The notes under the pieces are model-generated. The model saw only the letters and a list, made by a program, of their open reading frames with translations, was not told the DNA's origin and searched no databases. The position numbers and the translations under genes were made by a program. From positions 159,982-223,981 of the forward strand of contig CAVTRW010000005.1 in the NCBI GenBank assembly GCA_963737195.1: DNA of 64,000 bases, in the 5' to 3' direction. Source of the stretch: an uncultured Verrucomicrobiae bacterium. Its GTDB lineage: Bacteria > Verrucomicrobiota > Verrucomicrobiia > Chthoniobacterales > UBA10450. Positions 1 through 64,000 of this stretch are shown one piece after another. Position 1 is the stretch's first letter, and each line of letters opens with the position of its first letter.

Positions 1-1698
1 TCTCCCGTTGCGCCAGCCGAAGATTCCTACCCGACCTCGAATTTTCCTGCGTCCCCGGTACTGGAAGCCAAAGATGAAACAGCTTCTAAAGAAATTCCGG
101 CGGCGACATCCGCAACCGAGGAAACTCAAACGGTTGATACGGCAATGGTCGGGGAGCCGGAAGAAATCGAGACGCCACCGGAACTGCCGATCCAGCACCA
201 CGAAATCGCATCAGCGCCGGTTCGTGAGGAGGTTACGCACGACGGTGAATCTCCGCCCGCGTTTGAAAGCGAGCATCGCGTTCCTGTTGCGAGGGTTCGT
301 TTTTACAAAGCAGCCACAGTCCTCGCGATTACTGTTCTGCTCGTGGTCATCGGTGTGCTGGTGCGCGCGCGATTCACAGCGGAGAAGCTGGTGCGCGCTC
401 GCGACGTCGCGGAAAGTGAGCGGGCGCAAGCTGAAAAGCTGACGAATTTCCTGCAGCGCACATTCTCGTTGTCAGACGAAAATGTCACTTCGGTTTGGCC
501 AGTGCCGCAACGCAAAGCGATGACGGTGCCGGAGATGCTCGATCAAATCGCACCGCGAATCGACAAAGAGTTTCGCGATCGTCCCGCTTTGCACGCCGGA
601 ATGTTGCGCATGATCGGCAGCGCTTACGCGTCGCAGGGAAAATATGATGCGGCGGAGAAAAATCTGCGAGCGGCCTTTGGCGCGCAAGTTCGTCTTCATG
701 GCGAAGAAGACGCGGAGACCGCTGCCACGATGGTTGAACTCGGAATTCTGTCGGCGCGCGAGCTAAAACCTGATGATGCGCAACGCTATCTGGAAAGGGC
801 GATCCGTTTTTATCGCGAACAGCGAGCGTCCAATGCGTCGGGATTCAATCCTGCGAAATTCGCACTCGCTCTCGCGTATCTCGGAGAAACAAAGTTTACG
901 CAGGGTGATTCGACCGCGGGTATTTCCGCGATGAGGGAAGCTTTGGAAGTTTCCTCGGCTGCAAATCTGCAAGGCGCTGAGAAAAATGTGTTGGCCTTCA
1001 GCCAGGGTCGCCTCGGCTCGGCGTTCATTTTACTGGGTGAAACCGATCAGGGCGAACCATTGCTTCGCAAAGCGATCGTTGAATATGCCAGGGAATCGGC
1101 GGAGCCGCGGTGGGAGATGGGCGAGCTGGTCATGATGCTCGGCGTCGCCGCGCTCAATCGAGATCAGCCTAACGACGCGCAAAAATATCTGGCGCAGAGC
1201 GAACAAATTTTGCGCCAAACGCTGGGCAGCAAAAATATTTATCTGGTGACGAACCTTGATTATCAAGCGTCTGCTTTGGCGATGCAGGGCGATTTCAAGC
1301 CGGCCGAAGAAAAGGCGCGCGAATGCCTCGCCTTATGTCAGGAAGTCTCTCCGCAAAACAAGCTGCCGTGGGCGGGACCGCTCCGCACTCTGGGAAATAT
1401 TCTCACTCTCGCCGGGCAAGCTAAAGAAGGCGAAAATTACTACCGTGAAGCGCTCCGTATTTGCGAACGGCAGGCAACGCAAAACTTCAGCCTGATCGTG
1501 CCTTTGAAAATTCAGTTGTGCCATTTGTTGCTCGCACAGCAACGCCTCACCGAAGCGGAAAATCTCGCGTTTGAGGCCCAGACCGAAGCGCAGCGGCATT
1601 TTGACGAGCAAGATCCGGTGCGAAAAGCCGCCGCCAGTAATCTGATTCAAATTTACCGCAAACAAGGCAAGGACACGGCCGCGCAGACCGTGCGTTAA
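1..1698 (+). CDS. TPR-repeat membrane protein, 5' end outside the window (listed ORF 145..1698 starts only at the first in-window Met)
   Basis: The frame is open from nt 1. One TM helix (ATVLAITVLLVVIGVLV) is followed by about 400 aa of TPR-like helical repeats, an architecture typical of C-terminal halves of Ser/Thr kinases or sensor proteins. Confidence 0.6.
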   Translation, partial: SPVAPAEDSYPTSNFPASPVLEAKDETASKEIPAATSATEETQTVDTAMVGEPEEIETPPELPIQHHEIASAPVREEVTHDGESPPAFESEHRVPVARVRFYKAATVLAITVLLVVIGVLVRARFTAEKLVRARDVAESERAQAEKLTNFLQRTFSLSDENVTSVWPVPQRKAMTVPEMLDQIAPRIDKEFRDRPALHAGMLRMIGSAYASQGKYDAAEKNLRAAFGAQVRLHGEEDAETAATMVELGILSARELKPDDAQRYLERAIRFYREQRASNASGFNPAKFALALAYLGETKFTQGDSTAGISAMREALEVSSAANLQGAEKNVLAFSQGRLGSAFILLGETDQGEPLLRKAIVEYARESAEPRWEMGELVMMLGVAALNRDQPNDAQKYLAQSEQILRQTLGSKNIYLVTNLDYQASALAMQGDFKPAEEKARECLALCQEVSPQNKLPWAGPLRTLGNILTLAGQAKEGENYYREALRICERQATQNFSLIVPLKIQLCHLLLAQQRLTEAENLAFEAQTEAQRHFDEQDPVRKAAASNLIQIYRKQGKDTAAQTVR

Positions 1699-1778
1699 AA
1701 CGGCGACTGTCCGGGCGCACAGCGAGAAAATCGCAGCGACCAATTGAGAAAAAACTCGAATTGCGATATTAATAGCGC

Positions 1779-1997
1779 ATGCCAAAAGAGGCGCAGATCG
1801 TAACTGAGGGAACGGTCACGCAGGTTTTGCCGGGCACGATGTTTCGCGTGGATCTACCCGGATCGCACAACGTGCTCGCGCATATTTCGGGAAAGATGCG
1901 TAAGAATTTCATCCGGATCGTACCGGGCGATAAAGTCGAAGTGGAATTGTCGCCCTACGATCTGACCAAGGCGCGCATCATTTTCCGCGAGAAATAA
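1779..1997 (+). CDS. infA: translation initiation factor IF-1
   Basis: The 72-aa protein has the S1-like IF-1 signature ([16 protein letters not shown]...[36 protein letters not shown]). Confidence 0.95.
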
Positions 1998-2173
1998 AGC
2001 GGCATCGTCGTTGCCGCGCGAAATTAACGGCGTGCGGCAGGAGTTACGAAACTCTCGTAAGCGCGCTCGTCCCATCAATTCCGTAATAAACACGGGTGGT
2101 TGAATTTTCGCCGGAACGTTTGCCGAAGAACGGCACGCGGCGATATTGGGAGAAACCTACAGGAGAAAGATTT

Positions 2174-2488
2174 ATGGCTGAAGATAATAAGACATCGACT
2201 GGAACGGGCGACGCTCAAAGCAAACTGGAAAGCAGCAAAACCCACGCGCGGAAAGCCGCGGAAGATTTAAAGTCGGCCGCAAGCGCGGTCGCCGGCGAAT
2301 ATCGCGGCAAAGCGGAAGAGGCTTGGGAAGGTGCTCGCGGCAAGGCGGAACAAGCCTGGGATGATGCGCGCTCGCGCGCCCGCACTTTCCAGGACGACGC
2401 CGAAGAATACGTGCGCGAGAATCCGACCAAGGCTGTTTTTACCGCGCTCGGTATCGGCTTTGTTCTCGGATTAATTTTCCGTCGTTAG
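2174..2488 (+). CDS. DUF883 / YqjD-ElaB family membrane-anchored stress protein
   Basis: ATG at 2174 is preceded by AGGAGA. The protein has a charged coiled N-terminal part and the C-terminal anchor ENPTKAVFTALGIGFVLGLIFRR typical of ElaB/YqjD. Confidence 0.75.
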   Translation: MAEDNKTSTGTGDAQSKLESSKTHARKAAEDLKSAASAVAGEYRGKAEEAWEGARGKAEQAWDDARSRARTFQDDAEEYVRENPTKAVFTALGIGFVLGLIFRR

Positions 2489-2500
2489 CAGAATCGCGGC

Positions 2501-3311: not shown

Positions 3312-4430
3312 GTGCATAAGAATCGGCGCCGGATTGTGACGACGAAAACAACCGAGCAGCCGGGCAATCTCGCGCACGTAAACGAATATTTGGCCATCGC
3401 GCAAGAAGCGGGCGCATCGGATGTTCATCTTGGCGTCAACGCGCCCCCGCTTTGGCGGTTACACGGAACTTTGCAACCGATCTGGCCTGACGCAGCGCGC
3501 CTGACAAAGAAGGAAACCATTGCTCTGGCGCAGGGTTTTCTTTCCGAGCTGCACCAGAAACAGCTTGCCGATCGTGGCGACGCCGATTTCGCCTACGCGA
3601 CGGAGTTTGGTCGCTTTCGCACAAGTGTCGTTCGTCAACGATTAGGAACCGACATCGTATTTCGCATCATCAATACGCGCGTGCGCACGATGGACGAGCT
3701 TGGTTTACCGGAACATCTCAAACTGCTCACGCGTTATCAGAACGGTCTCATCCTCGTCACCGGTTCGGTTGGCAGCGGAAAATCGACGACGCTCGCTGCA
3801 CTCGTCGAACAGATAAATGTCGAACGTCGCGAACATATCATCACGCTGGAAGATCCGATCGAATATGTTTTCGAGCCGAAAGGTTGCCACATCACGCAGC
3901 GCGAAGTGCATACGCACACGCGCTCGTTCGGCGCTGCGCTGCGCGGCGCACTGCGTGAAGATCCGGATGTCATCATGGTCGGCGAGATGCGCGACCTCGA
4001 GACGATCTCGCTCGCCATCACTGCGTCGGAAACGGGGCACCTTGTGCTCGGCACGCTTCATACCGGCAACGCCTCGCGGACGCTCGACCGGTTGCTCGAT
4101 GTTTTTCCAGTCGATCAACAGGAGCAGATTCGCATCATGGTCAGCGAATCGCTGCGCGGAATCATTAGCCAGCAGCTCGTGCCACGAGCCGACGGAACGG
4201 GCCGCGTGCTCGCGATTGAAACTCTGACCAACACACCGGCCGTCGCTAACGTCATTCGTGAAGCGAAAACATTCATGCTGCCGGGAATCATTCAGACGGG
4301 AAGGAAACAGGGAATGCAGTTGATGGATGATTCGTTAGGCGAATTGCAAGAGCAAGGTTTGATCAGCGCCGAGGAAGCCTACGAGCGCGCGGAACAGAAG
4401 CAGCAAATGCGAACACATCTAAAGATGTGA
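3312..4430 (+). CDS. pilT: type IV pilus twitching-motility (retraction) ATPase PilT
   Basis: Walker A GSVGSGKSTT, Asp box, Walker B DPDVIMVGEMRD, His box GHLVLGTLHT and the PilT-type AIRNLIRE-like motif VANVIREAK. Confidence 0.9.
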   Translation: MHKNRRRIVTTKTTEQPGNLAHVNEYLAIAQEAGASDVHLGVNAPPLWRLHGTLQPIWPDAARLTKKETIALAQGFLSELHQKQLADRGDADFAYATEFGRFRTSVVRQRLGTDIVFRIINTRVRTMDELGLPEHLKLLTRYQNGLILVTGSVGSGKSTTLAALVEQINVERREHIITLEDPIEYVFEPKGCHITQREVHTHTRSFGAALRGALREDPDVIMVGEMRDLETISLAITASETGHLVLGTLHTGNASRTLDRLLDVFPVDQQEQIRIMVSESLRGIISQQLVPRADGTGRVLAIETLTNTPAVANVIREAKTFMLPGIIQTGRKQGMQLMDDSLGELQEQGLISAEEAYERAEQKQQMRTHLKM

Positions 4431-4561
4431 AAACCCCAAGCCCCAATCACCAAACCCCAGGGAAGCTTCAAGCTCCAAAATTCAGATGGGCCTGCGATCG
4501 CATCTCTTTTTGGGGATTGGTTGATTGGGATTTCCCTGGAACTTGGGGTTTGGGGTTTGGG
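4431..4561. repeat. long imperfect hairpin built from CCCCAA / TTGGGG units between pilT and its paralog
   Basis: The outer arm aaaccccaagccccaa pairs with ttggggtttggggttt (15/16). The inner arm ccagggaa pairs with ttccctgg. Confidence 0.7.
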
Positions 4562-4569
4562 ATTTCCTA

Positions 4570-5730
4570 ATGGCGTATCTCGATCAATTTTTCCAATTGC
4601 TGGTAAAGGAAGGTGCCTCCGACCTCCATATCGGCGAAGGACAGCCGCCCAAAATCCGCCGGCACGGCGATGTCATGCCCATTCGCACCGAATCGGTGAC
4701 GCACGAGGAAGCCATCGTAATGATGAGCGAAATTTGCGGCGCGAAAAATTGGGAACTATTCAAGGAACGCGGCGATCTCGACTTTGCCTACGAGATGGAT
4801 AAGGCGTCGCGTTTCCGCTGCAATTTCTTGAAACAGGCGAACGGATACGGGGCTGTCTTTCGTCTGATCCCGACAAAAATCGCGAGCATCGAAGAACTCG
4901 GAATCCCGCCAGTGGTGAAACAGTTTGCGCATTTGCGCGGTGGACTTGTTCTCGTGACCGGTCCGACAGGTTCGGGAAAATCGACGACGCTGGCAGCATT
5001 GATCGATTACATAAACGAGAAATTTGCGCGCCACATCGTGACGATCGAAGAACCAATCGAGTTCGTGCACGATAACAAGCGCAGCGTCATCACGCAGCGC
5101 GAAGTGCCAACTGATTCCGAGTCGTTCCCGATCGGATTGAAAGCGGCGTTGCGCGAAGATGCGGACATCGTCCTCGTCGGCGAGATGCGCGATCTCGAAA
5201 CCATTTCGCTGGCGCTGACCGCGGCCGAAACCGGTCTGCTTGTTTTCGGAACCCTGCACACGAACAACGCGCGCAAGACCGTCGATCGCATGATCGATGC
5301 ATTCCCCGCGGACAAACAACCGCAGGTCCGCACGATGCTGGCTAATTCACTGCGCGGTGTGCTGGCGCAACTGTTGTTGAAAAAAGCGGACGGCTCGGGG
5401 CGCGTCGCAGTGAATGAAATCCTGATCGCGAATTCAGCCGTGGCCGCGATCATTCGCGAAGGGGCTACGCAAAAACTTCAGGACGTGATCGTTGCCGGCA
5501 AAGGCGAGGGCATGCAATTTATGGACGACGCGATCTGGGCGTTGCTGCAGCAAGGGATCGTCTCGCCCCATGAAGCGTTCATGAAATCGATCGACAAAAA
5601 TCTTTTCAAAAAATTTCTGCCAGCGGAAGAACGAGACCTTAGCAATTCCGCCGGCGCCGCACCGGATGATGAGAAGCGCGTCCCCGGGAATTTTGTGAAG
5701 ATCACGCGGCGTGGAGGCAAACGTTTGTGA
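4570..5730 (+). CDS. PilT-family ATPase, second paralog (PilU-like)
   Basis: ATG at 4570 (MAYLDQFFQLLVKEGASDLHI). Walker A GPTGSGKSTT, DADIVLVGEMRD and GLLVFGTLHT are present. Confidence 0.9.
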   Translation: MAYLDQFFQLLVKEGASDLHIGEGQPPKIRRHGDVMPIRTESVTHEEAIVMMSEICGAKNWELFKERGDLDFAYEMDKASRFRCNFLKQANGYGAVFRLIPTKIASIEELGIPPVVKQFAHLRGGLVLVTGPTGSGKSTTLAALIDYINEKFARHIVTIEEPIEFVHDNKRSVITQREVPTDSESFPIGLKAALREDADIVLVGEMRDLETISLALTAAETGLLVFGTLHTNNARKTVDRMIDAFPADKQPQVRTMLANSLRGVLAQLLLKKADGSGRVAVNEILIANSAVAAIIREGATQKLQDVIVAGKGEGMQFMDDAIWALLQQGIVSPHEAFMKSIDKNLFKKFLPAEERDLSNSAGAAPDDEKRVPGNFVKITRRGGKRL

Positions 5731-6090: not shown

Positions 6091-6648
6091 GTGAATATCT
6101 GCTCGGCGCGTCGCGCCTTCGCGCTCGTCTATGCCGGTCACGCCCAGGTCGTTTCGTCTGATCCGGAAAACAATTTTCTCACGCACGATTTCGATAGCTG
6201 GCTCGATTTTTCCGGTTCAGCCCCGGAGCACGAAATGGTGCAGACCATTTCATGGAAGATACGCGTCCCGCGCGTCATCGTGCTGCTACTCTTCGATCGG
6301 CTGCCGAAGAAGGAAGTGAAGTTCACGCGTCACAACGTCTTCGAGCGCGACAAAAACACCTGCCAATATTGCGGCCACATTTTTGATCGCAGCGAATTGA
6401 ACCTCGATCATGTGCTGCCGCGCGACCGCGGCGGAACGACCGTTTGGGAAAACGTGGTGTGCTCGTGTATTCCGTGCAACACGCGAAAGGGAAATCGTCT
6501 CCCGCATGAAGCGCACATGACATTGATCCGCAAACCGAAGCGGCCGAAATGGCGGCCGTTTGTTCATGTCACGTTCACGACGCAACAGCACGAAAGCTGG
6601 CGACACTTTGTCGACCTTGCGTACTGGAACGTCGAGCTTAGCGACTAG
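6091..6648 (+). CDS. HNH endonuclease family protein
   Basis: The HNH/zinc motif is CQYCG...LNLDHVLPRDRGGTTVWENVVCSCIPCNTRKGN. The start codon is GTG. Confidence 0.8.
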   Translation: MNICSARRAFALVYAGHAQVVSSDPENNFLTHDFDSWLDFSGSAPEHEMVQTISWKIRVPRVIVLLLFDRLPKKEVKFTRHNVFERDKNTCQYCGHIFDRSELNLDHVLPRDRGGTTVWENVVCSCIPCNTRKGNRLPHEAHMTLIRKPKRPKWRPFVHVTFTTQQHESWRHFVDLAYWNVELSD

Positions 6649-6660: not shown

Positions 6661-6751
6661 GTCATCCCGAGCGCAAGCGAGGGACCTCACGATCTCAGTA
6701 GTGGTCGACCAAAGTTATGTCGTGAGGTCCCTCGCGTGCCCTGGGGATGAG
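6661..6751. repeat. palindromic element family A, copy 1 (GTCATCCCGAGCG-N5-GAGGGACCTCACG ... CGTGAGGTCCCTCGC ...)
   Basis: Inverted arms at about 6661-6691 and 6721-6751, lying between the convergent HNH and nuoN genes. Confidence 0.8.
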
Positions 6752-6777: not shown

Positions 6778-8205
6778 TCAACGCGTTAGTGCGTGCAGAA
6801 TCGGCTGCGGATAAACTCCAAGCACGATATTCGCGACCAGTAACAGCGTGATCGCCGCGCGCGAGAGTCCGCTGATAGGAATTGCGTCGCGATTCTTCGG
6901 TTCTTCCCAGTACATCGCGCGCACGACTTTTAAATAATAATAAAAACCGCATCCAACCGTGACGACACCCACGGCTGCGAGCGCAAACTGGCGTTGCTGG
7001 ATCGCAGCGTCGAAAACGAAGAACTTCCCTAAAAATCCGGCGGTGAACGGAACGCCCGCGAGCGAGATCATTGCAACAAGCATGGCGAAGGCGAGAAAGG
7101 GCGAGCGTTTGCTCAAACCATTGAAATCCTGGATTTTTTCGCCGCTCTGATTTGCCACCACGATTAGCACCGCAAAACTCAGCAGCGTCATGACCAGGTA
7201 CGCGACGAGATAATAACTGGTCGCGACGCCGGACATCGAAACGATGCCGATCAGCAAATATCCAGTGTGACCAATGCTCGAGTAAGCGAGCAGTCGCTTG
7301 AGATTGCTTTGCGGAAGTGCGGCGAGGTTTCCGTAAATCAAAGTCAGGATCGCGACGATGACGAGAGCACGCTGCACCTGCGGCAAAATGAAGAATGGGT
7401 GCAGAATTCGAAGAAGAACGACGAACCCGGCAGCTTTTGAACCAACGGAAAGAAAAGCCGTGATTGGCGTCGGCGCGCCTTCGTAAACGTCCGGCACCCA
7501 GATCTGCAATGGGACGGCGGCGATCTTGAACCCGAGCGCGACCAGAACCAGCACCATTCCAAAAAGCGCCGGCATCGTTTCGATGTGACCACTCGTTAGG
7601 GCAGCCGCCACCCGATCGAGATTCGTTTCGCCGGTCACGCCGAAAATCCAGGTAATGCCGTAAACGAGAAAACCGGTCGCGACGGCGCTGAGAATCAGGT
7701 ATTTCACACCCGCTTCCAGGGTCGCGGGATTGCGTCGCGTAAAACTGACGAGGACGTAGAACGAAACCGAAACAAGCTCGATCGAAACGAAGATCATGAC
7801 GAAGTCGATCGCGGAGGCGATCCACATCAATCCCGCGCAGGTAAAAAGCGGCAGCGCGAAGAATTCGCCGAGACCCGCTTGCGAAGTGACGCCGTGAACT
7901 AACGAGCGCACGGTCGGCGCGTAATCGATCATCATGATCAGCACAAAAATCGTCGTTACGAGCGCGAAGCGTTTGAAGAAAATCGCGAGCGAATCAGCCG
8001 CATAGAAATTCCAAAATGCCGATGGATGATCGACCGGCGCAGGCGCGACGAAGAAGCTGGCGAGCAAAATCACGACGAGACCGGCGATCGCCGCATAGGC
8101 GATTCCTTCCTTTTCGATTTTCTCGGAGAACGCTTCGAGCAGCAGCAACCCGGCGCCGAGAAGAATGACGGCGATCTCGAGAGTGGGCGCGCCGATCATG
8201 ATCAC
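6778..8205 (-). CDS. nuoN: NADH-quinone oxidoreductase subunit N
   Basis: The 475-aa polytopic antiporter-like subunit is the last gene of the nuo cluster and overlaps the nuoM stop. Confidence 0.9.
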   Translation of the reverse strand: MIMIGAPTLEIAVILLGAGLLLLEAFSEKIEKEGIAYAAIAGLVVILLASFFVAPAPVDHPSAFWNFYAADSLAIFFKRFALVTTIFVLIMMIDYAPTVRSLVHGVTSQAGLGEFFALPLFTCAGLMWIASAIDFVMIFVSIELVSVSFYVLVSFTRRNPATLEAGVKYLILSAVATGFLVYGITWIFGVTGETNLDRVAAALTSGHIETMPALFGMVLVLVALGFKIAAVPLQIWVPDVYEGAPTPITAFLSVGSKAAGFVVLLRILHPFFILPQVQRALVIVAILTLIYGNLAALPQSNLKRLLAYSSIGHTGYLLIGIVSMSGVATSYYLVAYLVMTLLSFAVLIVVANQSGEKIQDFNGLSKRSPFLAFAMLVAMISLAGVPFTAGFLGKFFVFDAAIQQRQFALAAVGVVTVGCGFYYYLKVVRAMYWEEPKNRDAIPISGLSRAAITLLLVANIVLGVYPQPILHALTR

Positions 8206-52260: not shown

Positions 52261-52272
52261 AGCGTGAGTTGA

Positions 52273-52316: not shown

Positions 52317-52333
52317 TGCGCGAAAGCAACGCT

Positions 52334-52404
52334 GTCATCCTGAGCGTAGCGAAGGACCTCACGATTGCAGAAAATGTGAGGTCCCTCACTGCGTTCGGGA
52401 TGAC
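52334..52404. repeat. palindromic element family A, copy 6
   Basis: gtcatcctgagcgtagcgaaggacctcacg ... tgtgaggtccctcactgcgttcgggatgac. Confidence 0.85.
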
Positions 52405-52412: not shown

Positions 52413-54553
52413 TTAGTGCGCTTCTTCCGATGGTCCGGCGGGCGCTTTCTTCTTATCCTGCGCGCCGATGCCAATCTTTTTCAGGAACGGCTGGATCGAT
52501 TGTTTGCGGCCGAGAAATTTCTCGATCGAAACGGTGACGTCGCGCGAATCGCCGACTTCGTAAATTTCGTGACGCAATTTCAATCCCGCTTGTTTGTCGA
52601 GATAACCGTTTTTCGCTTTTTCAAAAACGGTCGCCATGTCTGCGGCAATGGCATCGGCCCAGGCGTAACCGTAGTAACCGGCATCGTAACCGTTCATGTG
52701 ACCGAAGTAAGTCACCATCGACGTGCTCGGATCGATCGGGAGAAAAACCTTCTCCAAAATTGGATTGGTGATCGCGACACAATCATAGGGCGCATTCTCC
52801 GGATGCTGGTCGTGCATCGCCAGATCAATCGAAGCGAGCGCGAACTGACGTCGATACCATGTCGCGGCAGTCGCGAGCTTCGCGTCATTCATCTTCTGAA
52901 TAATTTCCGCCGGAATTTTCTTCGACGGATCACGATAATCGGCCGCGAAAGTATCGAGGACGGTTTTGTTCCAAACCCAGTTCTGCAACATTTGCGAAGG
53001 CGCTTCCACGAAATCGCCCGGCACATTCGAGCCGGCAAATCGGCTGGTACTTTGCTCGCGTGACAATGGTGTGCAGCGCGTGTCCGAACTCATGGAACAG
53101 GGTTTCGACATCCGTATGCGTCATCAGCGAGGGCTTATCGGCGCTCGGTGGCGGGAAGTTGCAAAGGAGCGCGCACAGTTGGCCGCTGATATTTCCCGTC
53201 AGGGAGAAGTTTGCCATCAATGATGTTGAACTGCGCGAAGTGATTGAACTTTCCGTCGCGCGGAAACATATCGAGATAGAACATGCCGAGCGGCTCGCCG
53301 GTGGCCGAATCCGTTACCACGTAGAGCTGCAGATCATCGACCCATTTGTAGGGCGCGCTGATTTTCTCGAACTTTAATCCGAAGATGTTCTGGTAGATGG
53401 CGAACATGCCATCGAGCACTTTCTGAAACGGGAAGTAGGCGCGGAGCGCTTCCTTATCGACGTTGTATTTTTGTTTGTTGATCTGATTTTGGTAATAGCG
53501 CCAGTCCCACGTCGCGATCTTTGCCTTCGGATCGTTTGTGTCGGCGGCTTTCATCTTCTGCATCTGCGAAATTTCCGCCTCGAACTTTGGCTGGGTGCCG
53601 CGAATTAGATTGTCGATGTATGATTTCGCGCCGGCGCCGGTCTTGGCGAGTTTGATTTCGGTCTGGTAATCGTCCCACGATTTGTAACCAAGCTTCAGCG
53701 CGATCTTATTTCGCAACGCAAGCATCTGGTTCAGCACCGGCGCGTTCGCGTCTTTCGCGAGCGAATCATGAACGAGGTAGAGCTTCTTGCGTGTTGCTTC
53801 ACTCTTTGCGTTTTCTTCCACCGTCGTGAAATGCCATGTGATGTTGGCCATCACCGTGTAAGCATCGTCGCCCGTCTTCACACCGGGCTCGGCAAGGAAA
53901 CTTTCCGGCACGCCGTCGAGTTCGGCTTTGGTGAAAACGACGGGCGCTTTGGTGTTGACGATGTTGACGGCGAAATCGGTGCCAAGCTTCGAGAGTTGCT
54001 TGCGCAGGTCTTCAACTTCTTTGCGTTTGTCGTTAGGCAAATCGAGGCCGGCGCGGCGAAAATCGCGCATCGTTTCCTTGAAAAGCTTTTCGTCTTCGCC
54101 GCTCAACTTCGGACGCGTATCCGCGAACGCCTTCATCGCTTTGTAAACGTCTTCGCGGTAATCAATCGCCACCTGGAAATCCTGGAACTGTTTCACCGCA
54201 TTTTCCGCGGCCGTGCGCATGGCGGGAGAAGTATTCGATTGCTGAATGACGACCGCCTTGTTCGCGGAAAGCGTCGCCTCATAAACCAGATCGTCGCGCG
54301 CAACAATCGTGCTCTTAAAGGTCACCTTGCTCAGGTCTTGTTTGCCGATCGCATCAAGCGCCGCATTCGCCTTCGCGATCGCGTCTTTCGTCATCGTGTC
54401 GACCGCTTCCGGCGTTTGCGGCCAATCGGGAATGGTGAGGACGGAATTTTTCTTTGCGGCAGCGGCCTGGAAGTCGTCGATCGATTTTGTTTCCTGAGCG
54501 AAAAGCGGCGCGCCCACACAGAGCAACAAGAGAGACGTGAAGAGACGTTTCAT
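52413..54553 (-). pseudogene. M3-family oligopeptidase (Dcp/thimet-like), frame broken twice as sequenced
   Basis: The signal peptide is MKRLFTSLLLLCVGAPLFA. Three colinear frames join as ...KYQRPTV|ALLCNFPPPSADKPSLMTHTDVETLFHEFGHALHTIVTRAKYQ|RFAGSNVPGDFVEAPSQ. The junctions lie at about 53174 and about 53044. Confidence 0.85.
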
Positions 54554-54647
54554 AAGCGACAGAGTTGAGGGACGAAGATTGTGTAAGCCGATAGCGCGGT
54601 AAAGTAGAATCGCGCCTTTACGAAAGTGCGCGCGCCGTGCAAAAAGC

Positions 54648-55235
54648 ATGACGGTGCAGGCTTATCTCGAGAAATTTTTGCTCGCGTTTATTCCGCTCTT
54701 CGTCGCGATCGATCCAATCGGTCTGGTCGCGATCTTTGCCGGGCTCGGCACGAGTGCGTCGCCCGAAAATCGCAAACATCAGGCGATGCTCGGGATTTTG
54801 ACCGGTCTGTGCGTTGCCATCGGTTTCATGTTTCTTGGTAAAATTATTTTCGGCGCGCTTGGAATCACGGTAAAAGATTTCCAGGTCGCCGGTGGTTTGA
54901 TTCTGCTTTTGCACGCGGTCCGTGAACTGGTCGGATTCGGCCCGAGCGATCGTGGCGGCGCCGATGAATTTGGCGTCGTGCCGCTCGGCATGCCGTTGAT
55001 TGCAGGGCCCGCGCTACTAACCGCCCTGCTCATCCTGATTGATTCGGTCGGAATTATTTTCACTCTCATCGCGCTGCTCCTTAATCTCGGATTAGTCGCC
55101 ATCGCGCTTTGCAACGCGGAACGATTTACACGTCTGATGGGCAAACAAGGATTGCGTGGCGTGTCGAAGTTAATCGCGCTGCTGCTCGCGGCGATCGCGA
55201 TCAGTCTGATTCGACGCGGCTGGCAGGCGGCGTGA
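54648..55235 (+). CDS. MarC family (UPF0056) membrane protein
   Basis: The 195-aa six-TM protein has FLLAFIPLFVAIDPIG at the N-terminus. Confidence 0.75.
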   Translation: MTVQAYLEKFLLAFIPLFVAIDPIGLVAIFAGLGTSASPENRKHQAMLGILTGLCVAIGFMFLGKIIFGALGITVKDFQVAGGLILLLHAVRELVGFGPSDRGGADEFGVVPLGMPLIAGPALLTALLILIDSVGIIFTLIALLLNLGLVAIALCNAERFTRLMGKQGLRGVSKLIALLLAAIAISLIRRGWQAA

Positions 55236-55298
55236 CCGTCGTGCGGAAATGACACTGCCGCGCCCGGAACATCAGCGGGTCGCCTAACCACTGCGCTA

Positions 55299-56573
55299 TT
55301 GGTCGCCACGATTCTGGTGATCTACGCGTTGCAAACACACATGGCGCCGCGGGAAATGCTGCTCCCGCCGATGCGCGGCGATCAGGCGGCGTATTTGGAA
55401 TACGCGAAACAAATGCGGCTCAGCGGTTATGCATTCGAGGGTGATCGCAACAGAATGCCGCTCTATCCGTTCCTTCTGTCGCTCATTTATCGAGATGGAA
55501 TGGACGACGCGCAGTTCCTCGAAAAAGCTCGGACGTTCAACATCAACCTCACGATTGTTCTGCTGCTTGGTTTGTTTTGGATTTTCCGAAAATTTTTCCC
55601 GCCGTTTTACAGCGTGGCGTTGCTCGCGATAGCGGCGTTCGGCCTCTACATCTATCGCGCCCGAGTCGTGCACGTCGAACCACTCTTTTATTTCGTCGGT
55701 TTCGCGATGTTTGTTCTGCTCGCGCGAATTCTTGTCGCTCCCGGTTTCGTTTTGGCGATTGCAGCCGGCGTTGTCTCGGGTCTTGCCTACCTGACAAAGG
55801 CTTCGGCGCTCGCGGCGCTTCCGATCTTGATTGTCATCTTTCTCGCGCAAAGTTTTTTCATCGCGCGCGCGAATGCGCAATTTTCCATGCGCGACTTCGC
55901 ACGTCGGCTCGCCATCGGCGGCGTTCTGGTCGCCAGTTTCTTACTTTCGGTTTTTCCCTACATCTGGACGAACAAGCAGCGATACGGCGAATTTTTCTAC
56001 AACGTCAATTCCGCGCATTACATGTGGTGTGATTCGTGGCCGGAGGCGCTGAGTTATTCCGAAGAATTGCGAAATCCGGAGACACGAAAGGCCGCGCTCG
56101 CAAAGCTCCCATCAGCGCAAAAATACTGGCGCACGCATTCGCTCGAACAAGCGACCGGTCGTTTGCTGCGCGGGCTGAGCAGTTTGACGAAGCGCAGCGT
56201 TAAGGTTGTCGGTTACTACAAGTTCGTTGTCCTTCTTGGGCTGACCGCGCTCGTTTTAGCCGTTCAAAATCGAAAACGATTTTCCGAACTGCTGACACGC
56301 CGCCGCGCGGTCGCGGTTTTCTGTTTGATGTATTTCGGTGGCTACCTGCTTCTGTATGCCTGGTATGGAGCCGTCGTCACCGACAGCAGGTTCGTGCTCA
56401 CGCTCTTCCTGCCATTTGTGTTCAGCGCATCGATTCTAATCCACACGCTCGCGCGAGATCGAACCGTTTCAGTCGCCGGCCGACTGATCCCTGTCACGAC
56501 AGCGATCGCAGCGATCCTGATCGCGTTTGCGCTGGTTGATTCGCTCTATAACGCCGGGCGCGCGCTCTTTTAG
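55299..56573 (+). CDS. polytopic membrane protein, ArnT/PMT-like GT-C glycosyltransferase (tentative)
   Basis: The protein has more than 9 TM helices and an N-terminal loop GDQAAYLEYAK...RNRMPLYPFLLS. The start codon is TTG. Confidence 0.45.
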   Translation: MVATILVIYALQTHMAPREMLLPPMRGDQAAYLEYAKQMRLSGYAFEGDRNRMPLYPFLLSLIYRDGMDDAQFLEKARTFNINLTIVLLLGLFWIFRKFFPPFYSVALLAIAAFGLYIYRARVVHVEPLFYFVGFAMFVLLARILVAPGFVLAIAAGVVSGLAYLTKASALAALPILIVIFLAQSFFIARANAQFSMRDFARRLAIGGVLVASFLLSVFPYIWTNKQRYGEFFYNVNSAHYMWCDSWPEALSYSEELRNPETRKAALAKLPSAQKYWRTHSLEQATGRLLRGLSSLTKRSVKVVGYYKFVVLLGLTALVLAVQNRKRFSELLTRRRAVAVFCLMYFGGYLLLYAWYGAVVTDSRFVLTLFLPFVFSASILIHTLARDRTVSVAGRLIPVTTAIAAILIAFALVDSLYNAGRALF

Positions 56574-56944
56574 AACTGTCCTGTTCGCAGCATCACCAGC
56601 GTGCAGCCTTCAACCACTTCGATTCCGTGCGCGCGTGCTTGTTCGGCCAGTTTTTCGTTTTCGGCGCCCGGATTCATAATGATGCGGCGCGGTTTCGCGG
56701 CAAGTATCTCGGCGATTAATGGATTCGACCGGGCTGCCCGCAGATAAAGCGTAACGGTGTCGACCGCCACAGGGACATCGGAGATTTTCCGATAACATCG
56801 TTCGCCAGATACCTCATCGAAGGCAGGATTGATCGGGATCGGTTTGTGCCCATATTCTTTTAACAATTGCATCGCCTTATAGGCATAACGCTCCGGCTTA
56901 GGCGACGCGCCGACAACGGCGACCGTTTCTGATGACTTATTCAC
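56570..56944 (-). CDS. CoA-binding domain protein
   Basis: The 124-aa protein has VAVVGASPKPERYAYKA and PINP motifs. Confidence 0.8.
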   Translation of the reverse strand: MNKSSETVAVVGASPKPERYAYKAMQLLKEYGHKPIPINPAFDEVSGERCYRKISDVPVAVDTVTLYLRAARSNPLIAEILAAKPRRIIMNPGAENEKLAEQARAHGIEVVEGCTLVMLRTGQF

Positions 56945-57029
56945 TCGTGTTTTCTACAATATCGCATTCGGAAGGCCTGCGGCCCGATCCATTGACAGCC
57001 CTCGTACCCGCAATACTATCCTGCCACTT

Positions 57030-58334
57030 ATGAGGTTTCCTCTCGCGTTAACGACTAAAATCGCTGCGTACATCATCGGCCACAAGCTTCGCCGGACCGA
57101 GAAGTTCGCCACGGTCTTGCAATTGGAGCCATTACACACCTGCAACCTGACCTGCACCGGGTGCGGTCGTATCCGCGAATACTCGACCTCGCTCAAGGAC
57201 ATGATGAGCCTGGAGGATTGCCTCGATGCGGCGAAGGAATGCAAGGCGCCCATGGTCTCCATCTGCGGTGGGGAACCTCTCATTCACCCGCAGATCGAAG
57301 CGATGGTGAAAGGAATTCTGGAACAGAAACGCATCGTTTACATCTGCACGAACGCGATGTTCATGCGCAAGAAAATGCGGGAATGGCTCGCGAGCGAGAA
57401 CACGAAGCGATCTGCTTTCGTCGAAGGGAAGATTAAAGAACTGATCGCGGCCGGCTTGTTGACCGAAAAAGATGCGACGGAGATTCGTAAGGGTCCGAAG
57501 GATCCAGCGAAGCCGACGATCGGCCCGAGCCGATGGATGTATTGGAACGTGCACCTCGATGGTCTCGAGCGGACGCACGATCTCATCGTTGAGCGTGAAG
57601 GCGTCTTCAAGGAATGCGTGCTCGCGATCAAGATGGCAAAATGTCTCGGATATCAGGTCGCAACCAACACGACAGTTTATAAGGAGACCGATGTCGATGA
57701 AGTCGAGCAGATGTTCGATTTTCTCGCCGATCTCGGAGTCGACGGTCATACCATCACGCCGGGATATGATTACGACGCAGCGAAGCGAGACATGATTACG
57801 CGCTTAAATCTGCAGCCCGAAAATTTCTTCCTTACGCGCAAGGCGACTGTTGAAAAGTTTAGCCGGATTGAAAAATGGATGAAGGATTACACCCTCTTCG
57901 GAACTCCGGTTTATTTCGAATTTCTTGCCGGCAAGCGCGATCTGACGTGTTCAGCGTGGGCGATTCCGACGCGCAACATGCTCGGCTGGAAAGCGCCGTG
58001 CTATTTCATGACGGACAAGGTGGGAACCGAAGGGCATTACAAAACTTACGCGGAGATGCTCGAGAAAGTGCAGTGGGAGAAATATGGCGTGGTTGATGGC
58101 GTGGCCCGCGATCCGCGCTGCGAAAACTGCATGACGCACTGCGGCTACGAGCCGACCGCGAGCCTTGGTTTGCAGGCCAAACGCGGCGACACATGGAAGA
58201 CAGTGAAGTTTAATTTCGGTCGCAAGCCGCATCGCCGCGGACATGGCAGCGAAATCGCAGCCTACAACGGCGTGAGCTCGGGTAACGGACACATCACTGG
58301 TAAAAAAGCCGAGCTGGCCGCTCAAGCATCTTAA
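57030..58334 (+). CDS. hpnH: hopanoid biosynthesis radical SAM protein HpnH (adenosyl-hopene transferase)
   Basis: The radical SAM motif CNLTCTGC is near the N-terminus. The gene lies immediately upstream of shc. Confidence 0.85.
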   Translation: MRFPLALTTKIAAYIIGHKLRRTEKFATVLQLEPLHTCNLTCTGCGRIREYSTSLKDMMSLEDCLDAAKECKAPMVSICGGEPLIHPQIEAMVKGILEQKRIVYICTNAMFMRKKMREWLASENTKRSAFVEGKIKELIAAGLLTEKDATEIRKGPKDPAKPTIGPSRWMYWNVHLDGLERTHDLIVEREGVFKECVLAIKMAKCLGYQVATNTTVYKETDVDEVEQMFDFLADLGVDGHTITPGYDYDAAKRDMITRLNLQPENFFLTRKATVEKFSRIEKWMKDYTLFGTPVYFEFLAGKRDLTCSAWAIPTRNMLGWKAPCYFMTDKVGTEGHYKTYAEMLEKVQWEKYGVVDGVARDPRCENCMTHCGYEPTASLGLQAKRGDTWKTVKFNFGRKPHRRGHGSEIAAYNGVSSGNGHITGKKAELAAQAS

Positions 58335-58340
58335 TTTTCC

Positions 58341-60338
58341 ATGGCCAAATCCGCCGCGAACGTCATCGCGCTGCCAAGCGCTATTCCGAACCGCGAGGCC
58401 TCCTATGCCGCGAGTGATGCGGAAATCGCCGCGGCGATAGAAAAGGCGCAGCAAAACTTGTTGCGACAACAAAAGCCCGATGGGCATTGGGTGGGCGAGT
58501 TGCTGGTCGATAGCACGTTGTGCTCCGACTACGTGCTCTTCATGCACTGGTTAGGGGAGGTCGATCACACGTTGCAGGAGCGATGCGTGCGCCACATTCT
58601 GAAGCGTCAACTTCGCGATGGCGGCTGGAACATTTATTACGCTGGACCGAGCGAGATCAACGCGTCGGTAAAAGCTTACTTCGCTTTGAAACTGGCGGGA
58701 CACTCGCCTGATGTGCCGTTCATGCGTGAAGCGCGCGCCAACATTTTGCGCCTCGGTGGTATCCCCCGCATGAACACATTTAGCAAACTTTACCTCGCAT
58801 TGCTCGGTCAATTCCCGTGGCAATATCTGCCGACGATTCCGGTGGAAATGATTCTGCTGCCGCAATGGTCGCCGTTCCACATTTACAAAATGTCGTCCTG
58901 GAGCCGGGCGATGCTCATCCCGCTCGCGATCATCAATCATTTCAAACCGACGCGCGAGCTGCCGGGCATGAAACAACTGCACGAGCTTTATCCGCTCGGC
59001 ACTGAGCACAAGGATTTCCGTTTGCCGCGCAGCCAGCGTTTCTGGACCTGGCGCAATTTGTTTTTGCGCGTCGATGATTTCCTAAAATGGATTCATCCGC
59101 TTGGGTTCCGTCCCATGCGCAAACGCGCGCTGGAGGAAGCGGAGCGCTGGATGCTGGAGCGCATCGGCGAAGGCAGTGACGGTCTCGCGACTGTTTTTCC
59201 GGCGATGCTGAATTGTTTGATCGCGCTGCGCGCGTTGGGCTATTCCGCGAGCGATCCGCTTTATCAGAAAGCGGCGAAAGATTTCGAAGGCCTCTTTGTC
59301 GACGACCCGGAAGATTTTCGAATTCAGCCATGTCTCTCGCCGGTATGGGACACAGCGATTAATATCATCTCGCTCGCGGAGTCGGGATTGCCGGCCGATC
59401 ATCCGGCTTTGCAGAAAGCCGCCGAATGGCTGGTAAAGAAAGAAGTTCGCATTCGCGGCGATTGGACGATGAACAATCCGCATCCCGAAGCGAGCGGATG
59501 GGCCTTCGAATACAATAATATTTATTATCCCGACACGGACGACACCGGGATGGTGCTGATGGCGTTGCGTTTGGTGCGGCCTAACGATCGTGCCGCGCTC
59601 ACGCAATTATTCGACCGCGCGCTTAAATGGCAATTGAGTTTCCAATGCCACGATGGCGGCTGGGCCGCGTTCGACAAGGATGTGACGATGCCGTGGCTGG
59701 AAGACATGCCGTTCGCCGATCACAATGCGATTCTCGATCCGACCTGCAGCGATCTGACCGCGCGCACGCTCGAGCTCTTCGGTTACATCGGATTTAATCG
59801 ACGCGCCAAATGTGTGCGTCGCGCCATTCAATACCTGGTCAGGACGCAGGACGATGATGGTTCGTGGTACGGACGCTGGGGCGTGAATTACATTTACGGC
59901 ACGTGGCAGGTCTTGCGCGGTTTGCGCGCCATCGGTGAAAACATGACGCAGGACTGGATCCTGCGTGGACGCGATTGGCTCGAGAGCTGTCAGAACGAAG
60001 ATGGCGGCTGGGGCGAAACATGCGTGACGTATGAAAATCCTGCGCGCAAAGGGCAGGGGGAAAGTACCGCATCGCAAACAGCATGGGCCGTGATGGGGTT
60101 GTGTGCGTGCGGCGATCTCGACCGGCCAAGTGTGCAGCGCGGTGTGCGCTATTTGCTCGCGACACAACAGCGCGATGGCTCATGGCAAGAGCCGCATATT
60201 ACCGGCACCGGTTTCCCGGGCGTGTTTTATCTGAAGTACGACTTTTACCGGCAAAATTTCCCGCTGTTGGCGCTGGCCACCTACGTCAATTATCGCAGCG
60301 GTCTCGATCACCACCCGAGTCATTATCGCTGCGGATAA
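58341..60338 (+). CDS. shc: squalene-hopene cyclase
   Basis: The 665-aa protein has repeated QW motifs (DGGW/DGSW) and the DxDDTG catalytic motif ([14 protein letters not shown]). Confidence 0.95.
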
Positions 60339-62116: not shown

Positions 62117-62172
62117 AAGCTTGCGAGCATCGCAACCTCCGCTAGAGAAGGTCTTCGGCGAGTCCGACCGCC

Positions 62173-63408
62173 ATGGCTTATCTCAACGAAAATTACCTCA
62201 AACTTCAGGCCGGATATTTGTTTCCGGAAATTTCACGACGCGTTCAGGAATTTAGCAAAGCGAATCCGGAAGCGGCGAAGCGGTTGATCTTTTGCGGGAT
62301 TGGCGATGTGACCGAGCCGCTGCCACGTGCCGCGATCGACGCCATGAAACGTGCCGCCGACGAACTCGGTGTGCGCGAAACTTTTCGAGGATATGGGCCG
62401 TATCAAGGCTACGAATTTTTGCAGAGCAAGATCGCGCAACATGATTATCGCGCGCGCGGAATCGAAATTGCCGACGATGAAATTTTTTTGTCGGATGGCT
62501 CGAAGAACGATTGCTCGTCGATTCTCGATATTTTAGGCGATCAAAACCGGATCGCGATCACCGATCCCGTTTACCCCGTTTACGTCGACACGAATGTGAT
62601 GGCGGGTCACACCGGACCGGCGCAGAAGGACGGGCGGTTTGAGGGAATTATTTATCTACCCTGCACGGCTGAAAATAAATTCGTCGCGGAACCGCCTAAC
62701 GAGTCCGCCGACCTTGTCTATCTTTGTTTTCCGAACAATCCAACAGGCGCGGTGGCTTCGCGTGAACAACTGACTCGCTGGGTGGAATACGCGCGCGAGC
62801 ATGAAGCTTTGCTCCTTTTCGACGCCGCATACGAAGGCTACATCAGCGATCCGCAGATTCCACACTCCATCTTCGAAATACCCGGCGCGCTCGAATGTGC
62901 AGTCGAGTTTCACAGTTTTTCCAAGACCGGCGGATTCACCGGCGTGCGTTGCGGATTTACTGTGATGTCGAAGTCGCTCACCGGTCGTACCCAGAGCGGG
63001 AAGAAAATGCCGTTGCATCCTTTGTGGCAGCGGCGCTGGAGCACAAAGGCCAATGGCGTGAGCTACCCGGTGCAGCGCGCCGCCGAGGCGCTCTACAGCG
63101 ACGAAGGTCGCGCGCAGGTTCGCGCGCTGATCGATCACTACATGGGCAACGCGCGCATTCTGGCGGAGGCGGCGCGAAAAATGGGCCTGGAGGTATTTGG
63201 CGGAACGAATGCACCCTATATCTGGGTGAAAACACCGAATGGCCTAACGAGTTGGCAGATGTTCGACCGCATGTTGAACGAGCTCAACGTTGTCATCACG
63301 CCGGGCAGCGGCTTCGGTTCCAACGGCGAGGGTTATATTCGAATTTCCGCCTTCAACAGCCGCGAGAACGCCGAAGAAGTTGCGCGCCGTTTGCAAAAAC
63401 TGAAGTGA
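62173..63408 (+). CDS. dapL: LL-diaminopimelate aminotransferase
   Basis: The 411-aa protein has the N-terminus [20 protein letters not shown] and [14 protein letters not shown] around the PLP lysine. Confidence 0.9.
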
Positions 63409-63477
63409 TCGCGGCCTGAAGCTCCTCTTGTCCCCAGAGCAGAGGCAAGTAAAGTTGCGGCTTTTCCGGAAATCAGC

Positions 63478-63948
63478 GTGGGCGCTCCCAGTCAAAATCT
63501 GCCGCAATTGTATCGGTTTTGTTTTTTGATGACCGGCGACGAGCAAAAAGCTCAGGCCGCTTTTCAGGAAACGATTCGCGCGGCGGCCTCGCATTCGGCG
63601 GAAGGGGAACCGCCGAACGACCGGATCTGGTTTTACCGCGAAGCGCGCTGGCGTTGTCTCGCCGCGGGCGCGCACGGCGTTCAAGCCGAAGACGTGGAAA
63701 TCGATGAGACGCCCCTCTCGGTCGAAGCCCCCGAGCAACTGCGTCAGCTCGAACCGCAACAGCTCGCCATCTGGATCGCGGGCGCGCCCGATCCGCAACG
63801 AAGTGCGCTCGCGCTTTTTTATCTCGACGAGTTCAACCATCGGGAAATGTGTTCGTTACTCGAGCTGAGTCCGGTTGAGCTGGGTGGCCTGATTGCGCAG
63901 GGCCGCGCGCAACTGCAAACGTGGTTGGATGCCCACACCATATTGTGA
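63478..63948 (+). CDS. ECF-type RNA polymerase sigma factor
   Basis: The region 4 HTH is RSALALFYLDEFNHREMCSLLELSPVELGGLIAQGRAQL. The start codon is GTG. Confidence 0.7.
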   Translation: MGAPSQNLPQLYRFCFLMTGDEQKAQAAFQETIRAAASHSAEGEPPNDRIWFYREARWRCLAAGAHGVQAEDVEIDETPLSVEAPEQLRQLEPQQLAIWIAGAPDPQRSALALFYLDEFNHREMCSLLELSPVELGGLIAQGRAQLQTWLDAHTIL

Positions 63949-63951
63949 CCG

Positions 63952-64000
63952 ATGAGTTGGCTTAAATTCTGGCAACGTCAACGCGCGCTTGCTCAGTGCG
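63952..64000 (+). CDS. start of an ORF truncated by the window end, possibly the cognate anti-sigma factor
   Basis: The ATG lies 4 nt after the sigma factor stop. Only 16 codons are visible. Confidence 0.25.
   Translation, partial: MSWLKFWQRQRALAQC

Follow-up and report, generated by a model that had tools for sequence, protein, structure and literature searches.

A hyperabundant, uptake-sequence-like DNA word in Verrucomicrobiota and Gemmatimonadota

What could scatter one short, asymmetric DNA word through the genes of a bacterium, in both orientations and in every frame that stop codons leave open? The question is raised by a 64-kb stretch of contig CAVTRW010000005.1, hereafter the window, from an uncultured member of the Chthoniobacterales (Verrucomicrobiota, Spartobacteria). 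The window holds 40 copies of the 8-mer core CCTAACGA, 20 on each strand, compared with 0.94 ± 0.90 (maximum 3) in dinucleotide-preserving shuffles, and 16 of them are the full 10-mer GCCTAACGAG, of which 0.05 are expected. At 0.62 per kb, or one copy per ~1.6 kb, the core exceeds every other 8-mer of the window by a wide margin in over-representation under a third-order Markov model, and when the motif-bearing loci are pooled (218 kb), 136 copies stand against 2–5 expected, a 28–65-fold enrichment. A first-pass annotation, made from the letters of the window, had all 40 coordinates and strands exactly right; its 16 10-mers and its flanking preferences, G before the core in 32 of 40 copies and G after it in 20 of 40, are confirmed, and T is also favoured at +2 (21 of 40). 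Aligned, the 40 copies read [c/g]-G-CCTAACGA-[G/a]-[T], and the flanks are flat beyond −2/+2. Outside the motif the flanks are unrelated, so the copies are not pieces of a longer repeat, as the annotation had also held, and the word itself, read directly from the sequence, is asymmetric and non-palindromic.

Near-cognates of the core are more numerous than the roughly 17 one-mismatch variants first reported: the window contains 41, of which 13 are CCTCACGA and belong to a separate hairpin repeat that resembles repetitive extragenic palindromes (REP-like). Across the pooled 218 kb, fewer variants than expected fall at core positions 5 and 6 (3 versus 9.2 and 0 versus 3.8), and the products expected from decay at position 7 (CpG to CpA) are enriched (14 versus 1.2 expected), as are position-1 variants, with expectations for single near-cognates that are small and model-dependent.

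Most copies lie in genes. On gene calls from a self-trained codon model, corrected with Pfam, the window is 91% coding, and 33 copies (82%) are genic and 7 intergenic, slightly fewer genic copies than the approximately 35 of the first-pass annotation. Within the motif, TAA closes one of the six frames and TAG, on the reverse strand, another; the four that stay open are all used: CCT-AAC-GAn (P-N-D/E) by 10 copies, nnC-CTA-ACG-Ann (L-T-x) by 11, TCG-TTA-GGn (S-L-G) by 8 and nTC-GTT-AGG (V-R) by 4. The earlier statement that all reading frames are used therefore stands for both orientations and for every open frame, but not for the two frames closed by stops. Genic copies are sense in 21 cases and antisense in 12 (p = 0.16). 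Flat flanks and a location that is 82% genic set the motif apart from REP elements and miniature inverted-repeat transposable elements, which are recognized by shared long flanks or a palindrome and by an intergenic position.

Codon usage and protein sequence both bend to the word. Shuffling synonymous codons within genes leaves 1.67 ± 1.19 copies (maximum 6), compared with 30 observed in the first gene list. The codons that the motif requires are rare in the window (TTA 4.0%, CTA 3.1%, AGG 3.2%, CCT 8.5%), as had been remarked from the start, but the genome is not as GC-rich as was then supposed: with 56% G+C and a markedly CpG-rich sequence, the window is only moderately so. Eight of the 13 S-L-G tripeptides are nevertheless spelled TCGTTAGGC, and 10 of the 14 P-N-D/E tripeptides CCTAACGA. 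Motif-encoded tripeptides also occur more often than in shuffled proteins, 4.0-fold for P-N-D/E, 1.7-fold for S-L-G and 1.5-fold for L-T-x; known uptake sequences are reported to make their own encoded tripeptides about twice as frequent (Findlay and Redfield, PMC2817400). The force acts on DNA, not protein, as the first-pass annotation had argued, and synonymous-codon shuffles, orthologous sites, tripeptide spelling and tripeptide inflation agree on this point. It prevails over codon preference and alters amino acids, and compatible sites are near saturation, with 60–70% of compatible tripeptides converted. The case illustrates how far a drive at the DNA level can bend codon usage and protein sequence.

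Frame by frame, the ten P-N-D/E copies are all sense and lie in a TPR gene (1168–1175, + strand), nuoF (16613–16620, −, 10-mer), the open reading frame (ORF) 27950–28378 (28203–28210, −, 10-mer), a class-V aminotransferase (desulfurase-like) gene (34255–34262, −, 10-mer), glgB (39342–39349, +, 10-mer), ruvB (42204–42211, −), a DUF5996 gene (44725–44732, +, 10-mer), an M3 peptidase gene (54030–54037, −), a squalene-hopene cyclase gene (59580–59587, +) and a dapL-like aminotransferase gene (62695–62702, +, 10-mer); the third residue is D in the TPR, ruvB, peptidase and cyclase genes and E in the others. The 11 L-T-x copies, also sense, read L-T-S in a nuoN-like gene (7593–7600, −), nuoH (14168–14175, −, 10-mer), a nuoG-like gene (15334–15341, −, 10-mer), glgB (38930–38937, +), the DUF5996 gene (44604–44611, +) and the dapL-like gene (63243–63250, +, 10-mer), L-T-N in an ABC ATPase gene (26753–26760, −), xseA (40785–40792, −) and a split class I/II aminotransferase gene (49111–49118, +), L-T-T in the DUF5996 gene (44526–44533, +) and L-T-K in a small ORF, 18568–18840 (18768–18775, −). 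Copies in the other two frames are all antisense. Those encoding S-L-G lie in a pilT/pilU-family gene (4332–4339, −), nuoL (11173–11180, +, 10-mer), nuoH (14218–14225, +, and 14323–14330, +, 10-mer), fabD (acyl transferase; 20937–20944, −), a YqeY-like gene (21981–21988, −, 10-mer), the class-V aminotransferase gene (33964–33971, +) and ORF 51538–52389, which has no family match (52037–52044, +). Those encoding V-R lie in ispD (22538–22545, −, 10-mer), an ABC-2 permease gene (26300–26307, +), a sulfotransferase gene (29824–29831, −) and xseA (40540–40547, +, 10-mer).

Among the seven intergenic copies, one lies at the junction where the ispD and GT9 genes end (22908–22915, −), one at 23848–23855 (+), one immediately upstream of the sulfotransferase gene (29350–29357, +) and one upstream of glgB (37073–37080, −). 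A fifth (31769–31776, −, 10-mer) falls right after the T-tail of a terminator-like hairpin (31806–31790), outside its stem. The last two, at 12471–12478 (+) and 48045–48052 (−, 10-mer), are each ~25 nt from a REP-like hairpin (12501–12611 and 47940–48020, respectively).

The word is shared by the closest relatives of the source organism. Its nearest NuoH homologues come from soil metagenome-assembled genomes (MAGs) of the Chthoniobacterales, at 75–83% identity, and a comparison of 80 nuoH loci separates seven motif-bearing relatives (L001–L007) from 73 others (1.22 Mb, many phyla). The relatives carry 19 copies in 21 kb (L002), 12 (L003), 8 (L007), 7 (L006), 5 (L005), 5 in 12.6 kb (L001) and 1 in 2.6 kb (L004), that is, 0.24–0.9 per kb each and 0.49 per kb together, compared with 8 copies in all, or 0.0065 per kb, in the 73 other loci. 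A tree of 11 Nuo proteins places the window and L001–L009 in one clade relative to the outgroups L010–L012, from which the motif is absent. Within this clade, L008 and L009 are nested as sisters of L006, and in their 29 kb there is neither a copy nor a one-mismatch dialect, the CTAACG hexamer occurring just 2 times. Being motif-free yet nested, they indicate a secondary loss, and the simplest history is that the clade gained the motif once, at its base, and that one sub-lineage later lost it. The motif is a heritable trait of the clade, and a losable one.

Comparison at the codon level shows how copies come and go. At conserved S-L-G sites, such as FabD G-H-S-L-G-E, two NuoH sites and one NuoL site, the motif-bearing genomes have TCGTTAGGC, and L008, L009 and the outgroups have TCGCTCGGC or TCGCTGGGC. 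Individual sites are shared unevenly: the fabD copy (20937) is common to L001, L005, L006 and L007, the nuoH copies to L002, L004, L005 and L007 (14218) and to L002, L003, L006 and L007 (14323), the ispD copy (22538) to L001 and L003, and the nuoL copy (11173) to L002, the others having TCGCTCGGC. Other copies arose by amino-acid replacement at variable positions. In NuoF (16613), T-P-G/E-E-L became T-P-N-E-L, all relatives having P-G/E-E; in YqeY (21981), A-E-V-G-A became A-S-L-G-A, with E-V/T-G in relatives; in NuoN (7593), L-A-N became L-T-S, with L-A-N/D in relatives; and NuoG provides a further example. Relatives with the same amino acids carry the motif as well in ~58% of cases, a patchy sharing that equals the general occupancy of compatible sites (~60%), so that no site-specific selection is needed.

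In a survey of the 80 nuoH loci for dispersed hyperabundant 8-mers, the clade of the window alone stands out. Other top 8-mers in L005, L007, L009 and L012 were considered as lineage dialects and rejected as tandem or low-complexity repeats: in L005, the 8-mer CCTCTCAA forms a perfect tandem array of ~13 units, and hexamer-type low-complexity repeats (GAGCACGA..., ATGACGAA..., AACATCGA...) occur in all four. Such repeats mimic hyperabundant words in simple k-mer counts. A word in L045 is a peptide-level effect on a single strand, one in L028 lies on one strand throughout, with 6 of its 7 copies within ~1.3 kb, one in L021 is a repeat, and the 9 copies of ATCACACC in L067 are not significant after multiple testing.

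Nor is the motif confined to the window and its homologues. Metagenome contigs were scanned for two 10-mers at most 31 nt apart, the seeded pair being excluded from densities; most matches are unrelated tandem repeats, and ~20 of 120 loci are informative. Loci without homology to the window or the nuo region prove as rich as the window, at ~0.5 per kb beyond the seeded pair, for example L181/L217 (the zwf-glyA-lpxL-ispH region, 10 copies in 12.3 kb), L141/L144/L160, L123/L229 and L192/L142. Restriction to the window, which the first-pass annotation had counted against its own proposal, is thus not seen, relatives and unrelated loci being equally rich. The same kind of scan over viral contigs gave 35 matches, approximately chance by a rough hand estimate (few tens), and none is motif-rich; these loci have 2–6 copies each, and the higher counts are one-stranded, clustered and in short loci. 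Among the metagenome contigs of 53–62% G+C, direct, non-tandem doublets of the 10-mer with spacers of 1–6 nt occur (L181, L123, L220, L233/L176, L197, L163, L132, L135 and L150), for example GCCTAACGAGTCTAGCCTAACGAG, and L220 has two doublets in opposite orientation.

Identical GCCTAACGAG is also hyperabundant in some Gemmatimonadota-like contigs of 65–72% G+C. One such locus (L227, 66% G+C) is part of the 117-kb contig JADMIO011434930.1, and the 22.5 kb around it (L236, 1–22565) hold 19 core copies (8+/11−), 15 of them the full 10-mer; all four open frames are used, and 7 of 9 TTA and 5 of 6 CTA codons of the locus fall within the motif. The best named homologues of the S9 peptidase in L227 are all from Gemmatimonadota MAGs (55–63% identity), the next tier coming from other phyla at 39% identity. 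A group of contigs at 70–74% G+C has extra copies, and L239, the extension of one of them, contains 10 in 11.4 kb; its syntenic relative L240, picked up through homology rather than through the motif, contains 5 core copies and 8 GCCTAACG over 14.4 kb, and the named homologues of the S41 peptidase in L239/L240 are all Gemmatimonadota. L242 (68.5% G+C) has a shorter dialect, (G)CCTAACG-N, in 14 copies. Between 12589 and 16285 of this locus, 6 of the 14 lie close (~120 nt or less) to the ends of a pair of transposase genes (IS110 family, 12695–13666; DDE_Tnp_1, 14635–16161), a clustering at insertion-sequence genes that may reflect chance or an insertion-site preference. No motif is found in L238, L241 and L243 or in the Gemmatimonadota nuoH loci L031, L045 and L058 (103 kb).

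The consensus common to both phyla is [C/T]-G-CCTAACG-A-G. Independent arrival at the same 10-mer in two lineages is negligibly likely, and the recognition determinant was therefore very probably transferred horizontally between Verrucomicrobiota and Gemmatimonadota, which are among the most abundant uncultured soil phyla. Identity across phyla requires either transfer of a receptor or a different mobile reader. The more specific scenario, in which a mobile determinant, most simply a DNA-uptake receptor, crossed phyla and drove the word to near saturation of compatible sites in each recipient, is doubtful.

Our preferred interpretation, to which we give a probability of roughly 0.45, is that GCCTAACGAG, with its core GCCTAACG and the consensus [C/T]G-CCTAACGA-G-T, is a genome-wide DNA watermark and serves as a self-DNA tag in the manner of the uptake sequences of Neisseriaceae and Pasteurellaceae. 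A sequence-specific component of DNA acquisition, the likeliest candidates being a DNA receptor associated with the type IV pilus or a subsequent step in processing, would favour fragments that bear the word; to our knowledge, the uptake receptor is still unproven even in Pasteurellaceae. Homologous recombination of the favoured fragments would then replace resident alleles, mutations that create the word would be over-transmitted in the population (molecular drive), and the word would accumulate wherever protein function tolerates it. Movement of the determinant between phyla would place the same word in both. The driving force would in this case be biased uptake or recombination, which together are the only documented process that scatters an asymmetric 9–10-mer at ~1 per kb; for this reason the uptake-like tag is favoured. 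The same process would also cover the use of both orientations, the override of codon preference, the amino-acid changes, the distribution that follows the clade and the decay on loss.

Precedents exist for such a process. In all three known cases, DNA uptake sequences (DUS), uptake signal sequences (USS) and, recently, HIP1, a hyperabundant word has been linked by experiment to transformation (10.1101/2025.10.24.684340; 10.64898/2026.06.24.733823; 10.1101/2024.09.10.611283), and the first-pass annotation had likened the density, two-strand use and intragenic spread of the motif to DUS and USS, a likeness that we also find (PMC2817400; 10.1101/2025.10.24.684340). As background, a population-genomic study of soil reports that homologous recombination is frequent and ComEC loci are present among abundant soil bacteria, with Verrucomicrobia in the data set (PMC7305173). 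As of October 2025, uptake sequences were stated to be known in two families, Neisseriaceae and Pasteurellaceae (10.1101/2025.10.24.684340). The searchable literature yields neither the motif as a stand-alone word nor an uptake sequence in Verrucomicrobia, Udaeobacter or Gemmatimonadota, nor relevant surveys for new uptake sequences. The feature is real, strong and apparently undescribed, and its functional role is offered as a proposal.

The window also encodes the pilus components noted in the first-pass annotation, namely two PilT/PilU-family type IVa pilus retraction ATPases (3312–4430 and 4525–5730, both +; T2SSE; TIGR01420 at 420 and 435 bits, cut-off 319) and a 236-residue protein with a prepilin-type N-terminal methylation motif, possibly a pilin or pseudopilin (39533–40243, +; N_methyl; TIGR02532). 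These genes are context only, compatible with a type IV pilus-based route of DNA uptake and no demonstration of one.

Several observations count against the uptake-like tag. PilT and prepilin genes are widespread in bacteria without known competence. An identical word in two phyla is awkward for species-specific self-recognition and needs the extra assumption that the determinant was transferred horizontally; the interpretation of the first-pass annotation, made without sight of the second phylum, is partly supported. Known uptake sequences prefer frames with preferred codons (PMC2817400), and this motif forces rare ones. Terminators, where the words form inverted repeats, contain about half of the known uptake sequences (10.1101/2025.10.24.684340). 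Between 11000 and 50999, the stretch with all seven intergenic copies, no terminator-like stem contains the motif, and the sole inverted pair of motifs less than 50 nt apart lies inside nuoH. Strand ratios are heterogeneous over 15 loci (chi-square p = 0.0055), with L002, L003, L239 and L240 skewed, and a weak strand polarity may exist, as judged from loci rather than whole chromosomes.

Strand use also bears on the first of three rival explanations, each of which we consider improbable. In it, a nuclease, helicase or defence system acquired horizontally would read the word as a self tag inside the cell: DNA that lacks it would be degraded, DNA that carries it often enough would be spared or repaired, much as Chi protects DNA from RecBCD or AddAB, and selection would then fill the chromosome with it. 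Mobile defence or repair modules typically show this kind of patchy spread, here of an identical word over two phyla, nested lineages have lost the trait, several loci have local strand skews, and the window encodes RuvB and XseA, genome-maintenance proteins whose genes carry copies. Chi sites, however, are over-represented only a few-fold and strongly co-oriented with replication, whereas the motif is enriched 30–60-fold through rare codons and amino-acid changes and is evenly divided (20+/20−) throughout a window whose GC skew is positive over the first 32 kb and then near zero. The two halves of the window have 8+/14− and 12+/6− (Fisher p = 0.11), mirroring a change of gene strand; L002 and L003 show, over the syntenic nuo region, a strand skew opposite to that of the window; and across loci there is no consistent link of motif strand to GC skew (Spearman p = 0.2). 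Strong polarity of the type of Chi, or of the KOPS words, is not supported. No candidate enzyme for such a tag was identified. A stand-alone HNH endonuclease gene (HNH_5, 6091–6648), whose HNH domain resembles those of IscB and Cas9d, adjoins nuoN and has 86–89% identity across those seven loci of the clade in which it is covered (L002, L003 and L005–L009); it was considered as the driver and rejected, since the motif-free L008 and L009 keep it equally well conserved, at 87–89% identity.

A second rival, to which we would assign a similarly low likelihood, is a watermark like HIP1, in which an orphan methyltransferase or a nucleoid protein would target the word, and cis selection for chromosome structure, repair or methylation-dependent processing would keep it. 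The 28–65-fold enrichment of the motif, over genic and intergenic sequence, lies inside the 15–300-fold range of HIP1-type words (PMC5861425), the same sites recur across genomes despite saturation of synonymous sites, and copies are spaced slightly more evenly than random (coefficient of variation 0.77 versus 0.97, p = 0.06). HIP1 and the sites of its methylase are palindromic (PMC4390886), however, and the motif is not; Pfam scans of the window genes show no methyltransferase; and the recurrence of sites, at ~58%, is what general occupancy already predicts. A contiguous, asymmetric methylase site of 8–10 bp would also be unusual. Because HIP1 itself is now linked to transformation (10.64898/2026.06.24.733823), this explanation merges with the uptake-like tag.

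No likelier, in our judgement, is the third rival, a sequence-specific bias of repair or gene conversion that acts without DNA uptake and resolves near-cognate mismatches towards the word, as very-short-patch repair might do if its recognition site were long. The depletion of near-cognates at core positions 5 and 6, the excess of CpA products at position 7 and the near saturation of compatible sites would all fit a strong drive of this kind, but the expectations for single variants are small and model-dependent and no candidate gene was found. Very-short-patch repair shifts word frequencies only a few-fold, and we know of no repair enzyme with a specificity of 8–10 bp. That there is no DNA signal at all, the copies being a by-product of peptide or codon preference, a dispersed repeat family or sequencing and assembly error, is refuted: split window genes do suggest an error-prone assembly and the related word CCTCACGA does belong to a true repeat family, but codon-preserving shuffles reject codon and peptide causes, the copies occupy four frames and both strands with unrelated flanks, the motif recurs in MEGAHIT- and SPAdes-style contigs and chromosome-level MAGs from several laboratories and sources, and viral loci are at chance level with none enriched.

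Some features of the window stand beside the motif. The REP-like family consists of long, imperfect, intergenic palindromes at 6662–6750, 12501–12611, 20508–20603 and 47940–48020, with half copies near 39376–39406 and 52337–52400; its layout is GTCATCCCGAGCG-n-AGCGAGGGACCTCACGA ... TCGTGAGGTCCCTCGC..CGCTCGGGATGAC, with predicted hairpins of −58 to −73 kcal/mol, and its inner end, CCTCACGA, is one base off the motif core. A second frequent word, GGGACCTCACGA, was considered as a form of the motif and rejected, as it belongs to this long intergenic hairpin repeat. Four terminator-like hairpins share a GGCGCCCTCGCC-type stem-loop with the loop CCCT (11530–11551, 36983–37004, 49828–49851 and 49887–49904), a recurrence that hints at a favoured design of terminator or a further small repeat family. 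CGCGCGC, GCGCGCGA and CGATCGCG are the most common 7- and 8-mers of the window, and sigma-70-like promoter matches are fewer (1–3) than in shuffles (~8). Several genes are broken into ORFs that adjoin or overlap, namely the class-V aminotransferase (33861–35007), the class I/II aminotransferase (48734–49793), the M3 peptidase (52413–54649) and probably ruvB (41881–42946, 271 residues only), and are either pseudogenes or products of long-read assembly indel errors. At 57030–60338, a hopanoid pair consists of the squalene-hopene cyclase gene and, directly upstream of it, a radical-SAM/DUF3463 (HpnH-like) gene; the longest motif-free gap (54038–59579, 5.5 kb) spans the HpnH-like gene and is within Poisson expectation.

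If an uptake determinant did cross phyla, sequence-specific DNA uptake exists far beyond Proteobacteria, and a common password joins unrelated soil bacteria in one DNA-exchange community. The uptake-like reading would also point to natural transformation in Udaeobacter-like Verrucomicrobia and in Gemmatimonadota. Sequence-specific self-DNA tags are documented in two proteobacterial families only, with HIP1 as a recent candidate third; the motif would be a further example, from dominant but uncultured phyla of soil, and such tags would then be a general outcome of sex-like exchange in bacteria. The word would also give a sequence marker for binning, for detecting foreign DNA and for designing DNA that might be taken up. 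Two phyla with the same word and a nested lineage that lost it form a natural comparative experiment, in which co-occurring genes could lead to the receptor.

The motif can be set beside systems already known. Similar to DUS (GCCGTCTGAA and dialects, in Neisseriaceae, read by the minor pilin ComP), it is a non-palindromic word of ~10 bp at ~1 per kb, on both strands and in several frames within genes, it alters the proteome and is clade-wide with dialects, and type IV pilus genes accompany both. Unlike DUS, it has an unrelated sequence, occurs in different phyla, one identical word being found in two of them, is 82% genic compared with 34.5% in N. meningitidis (PMC2817400), and is without copies in terminator inverted repeats. 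As with USS (AAGTGCGGT / ACAAGCGGT, in Pasteurellaceae), the sequence of which is also unrelated, the copies are mostly intragenic (65% for USS in H. influenzae; PMC2817400) and similar in density, raise the frequency of their encoded tripeptides, fall where amino-acid change is tolerated, and occur in both orientations with a mild preference for the sense strand (PMC2346458). USS frames, in contrast, track preferred codons, where the motif forces TTA, CTA, AGG and CCT, and the AT-rich segments that flank USS are not seen around it. The density is like that of known uptake sequences, which have 1,471 and 1,892 copies per genome (PMC2817400).

HIP1 (GCGATCGC, in cyanobacteria) is likewise a word on the scale of an octamer, enriched tens- to hundreds-fold, genic and intergenic and recurrent at the same sites, with a recently reported link to transformation efficiency; it differs as a palindrome that is methylated by DmtA/DmtC and conserved phylum-wide, whereas the motif is asymmetric, patchy in two phyla and without a known methylase. 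Chi and KOPS are also short, over-represented words scattered through genes and read at the level of DNA, but they are strand-polar, switch at the origin and terminus and are enriched only a few-fold, compared with 20+/20− in the window and 30–60-fold enrichment here. What the motif lacks relative to DUS and USS is a place in terminator inverted repeats and a match to any known dialect; what it has in common with them is a copy density above chance, stop-free genic frames with inflated tripeptides, and sharing across a clade, with a dialect in L242. By sequence and by lineage it is a member of neither group, yet it appears to work like both.

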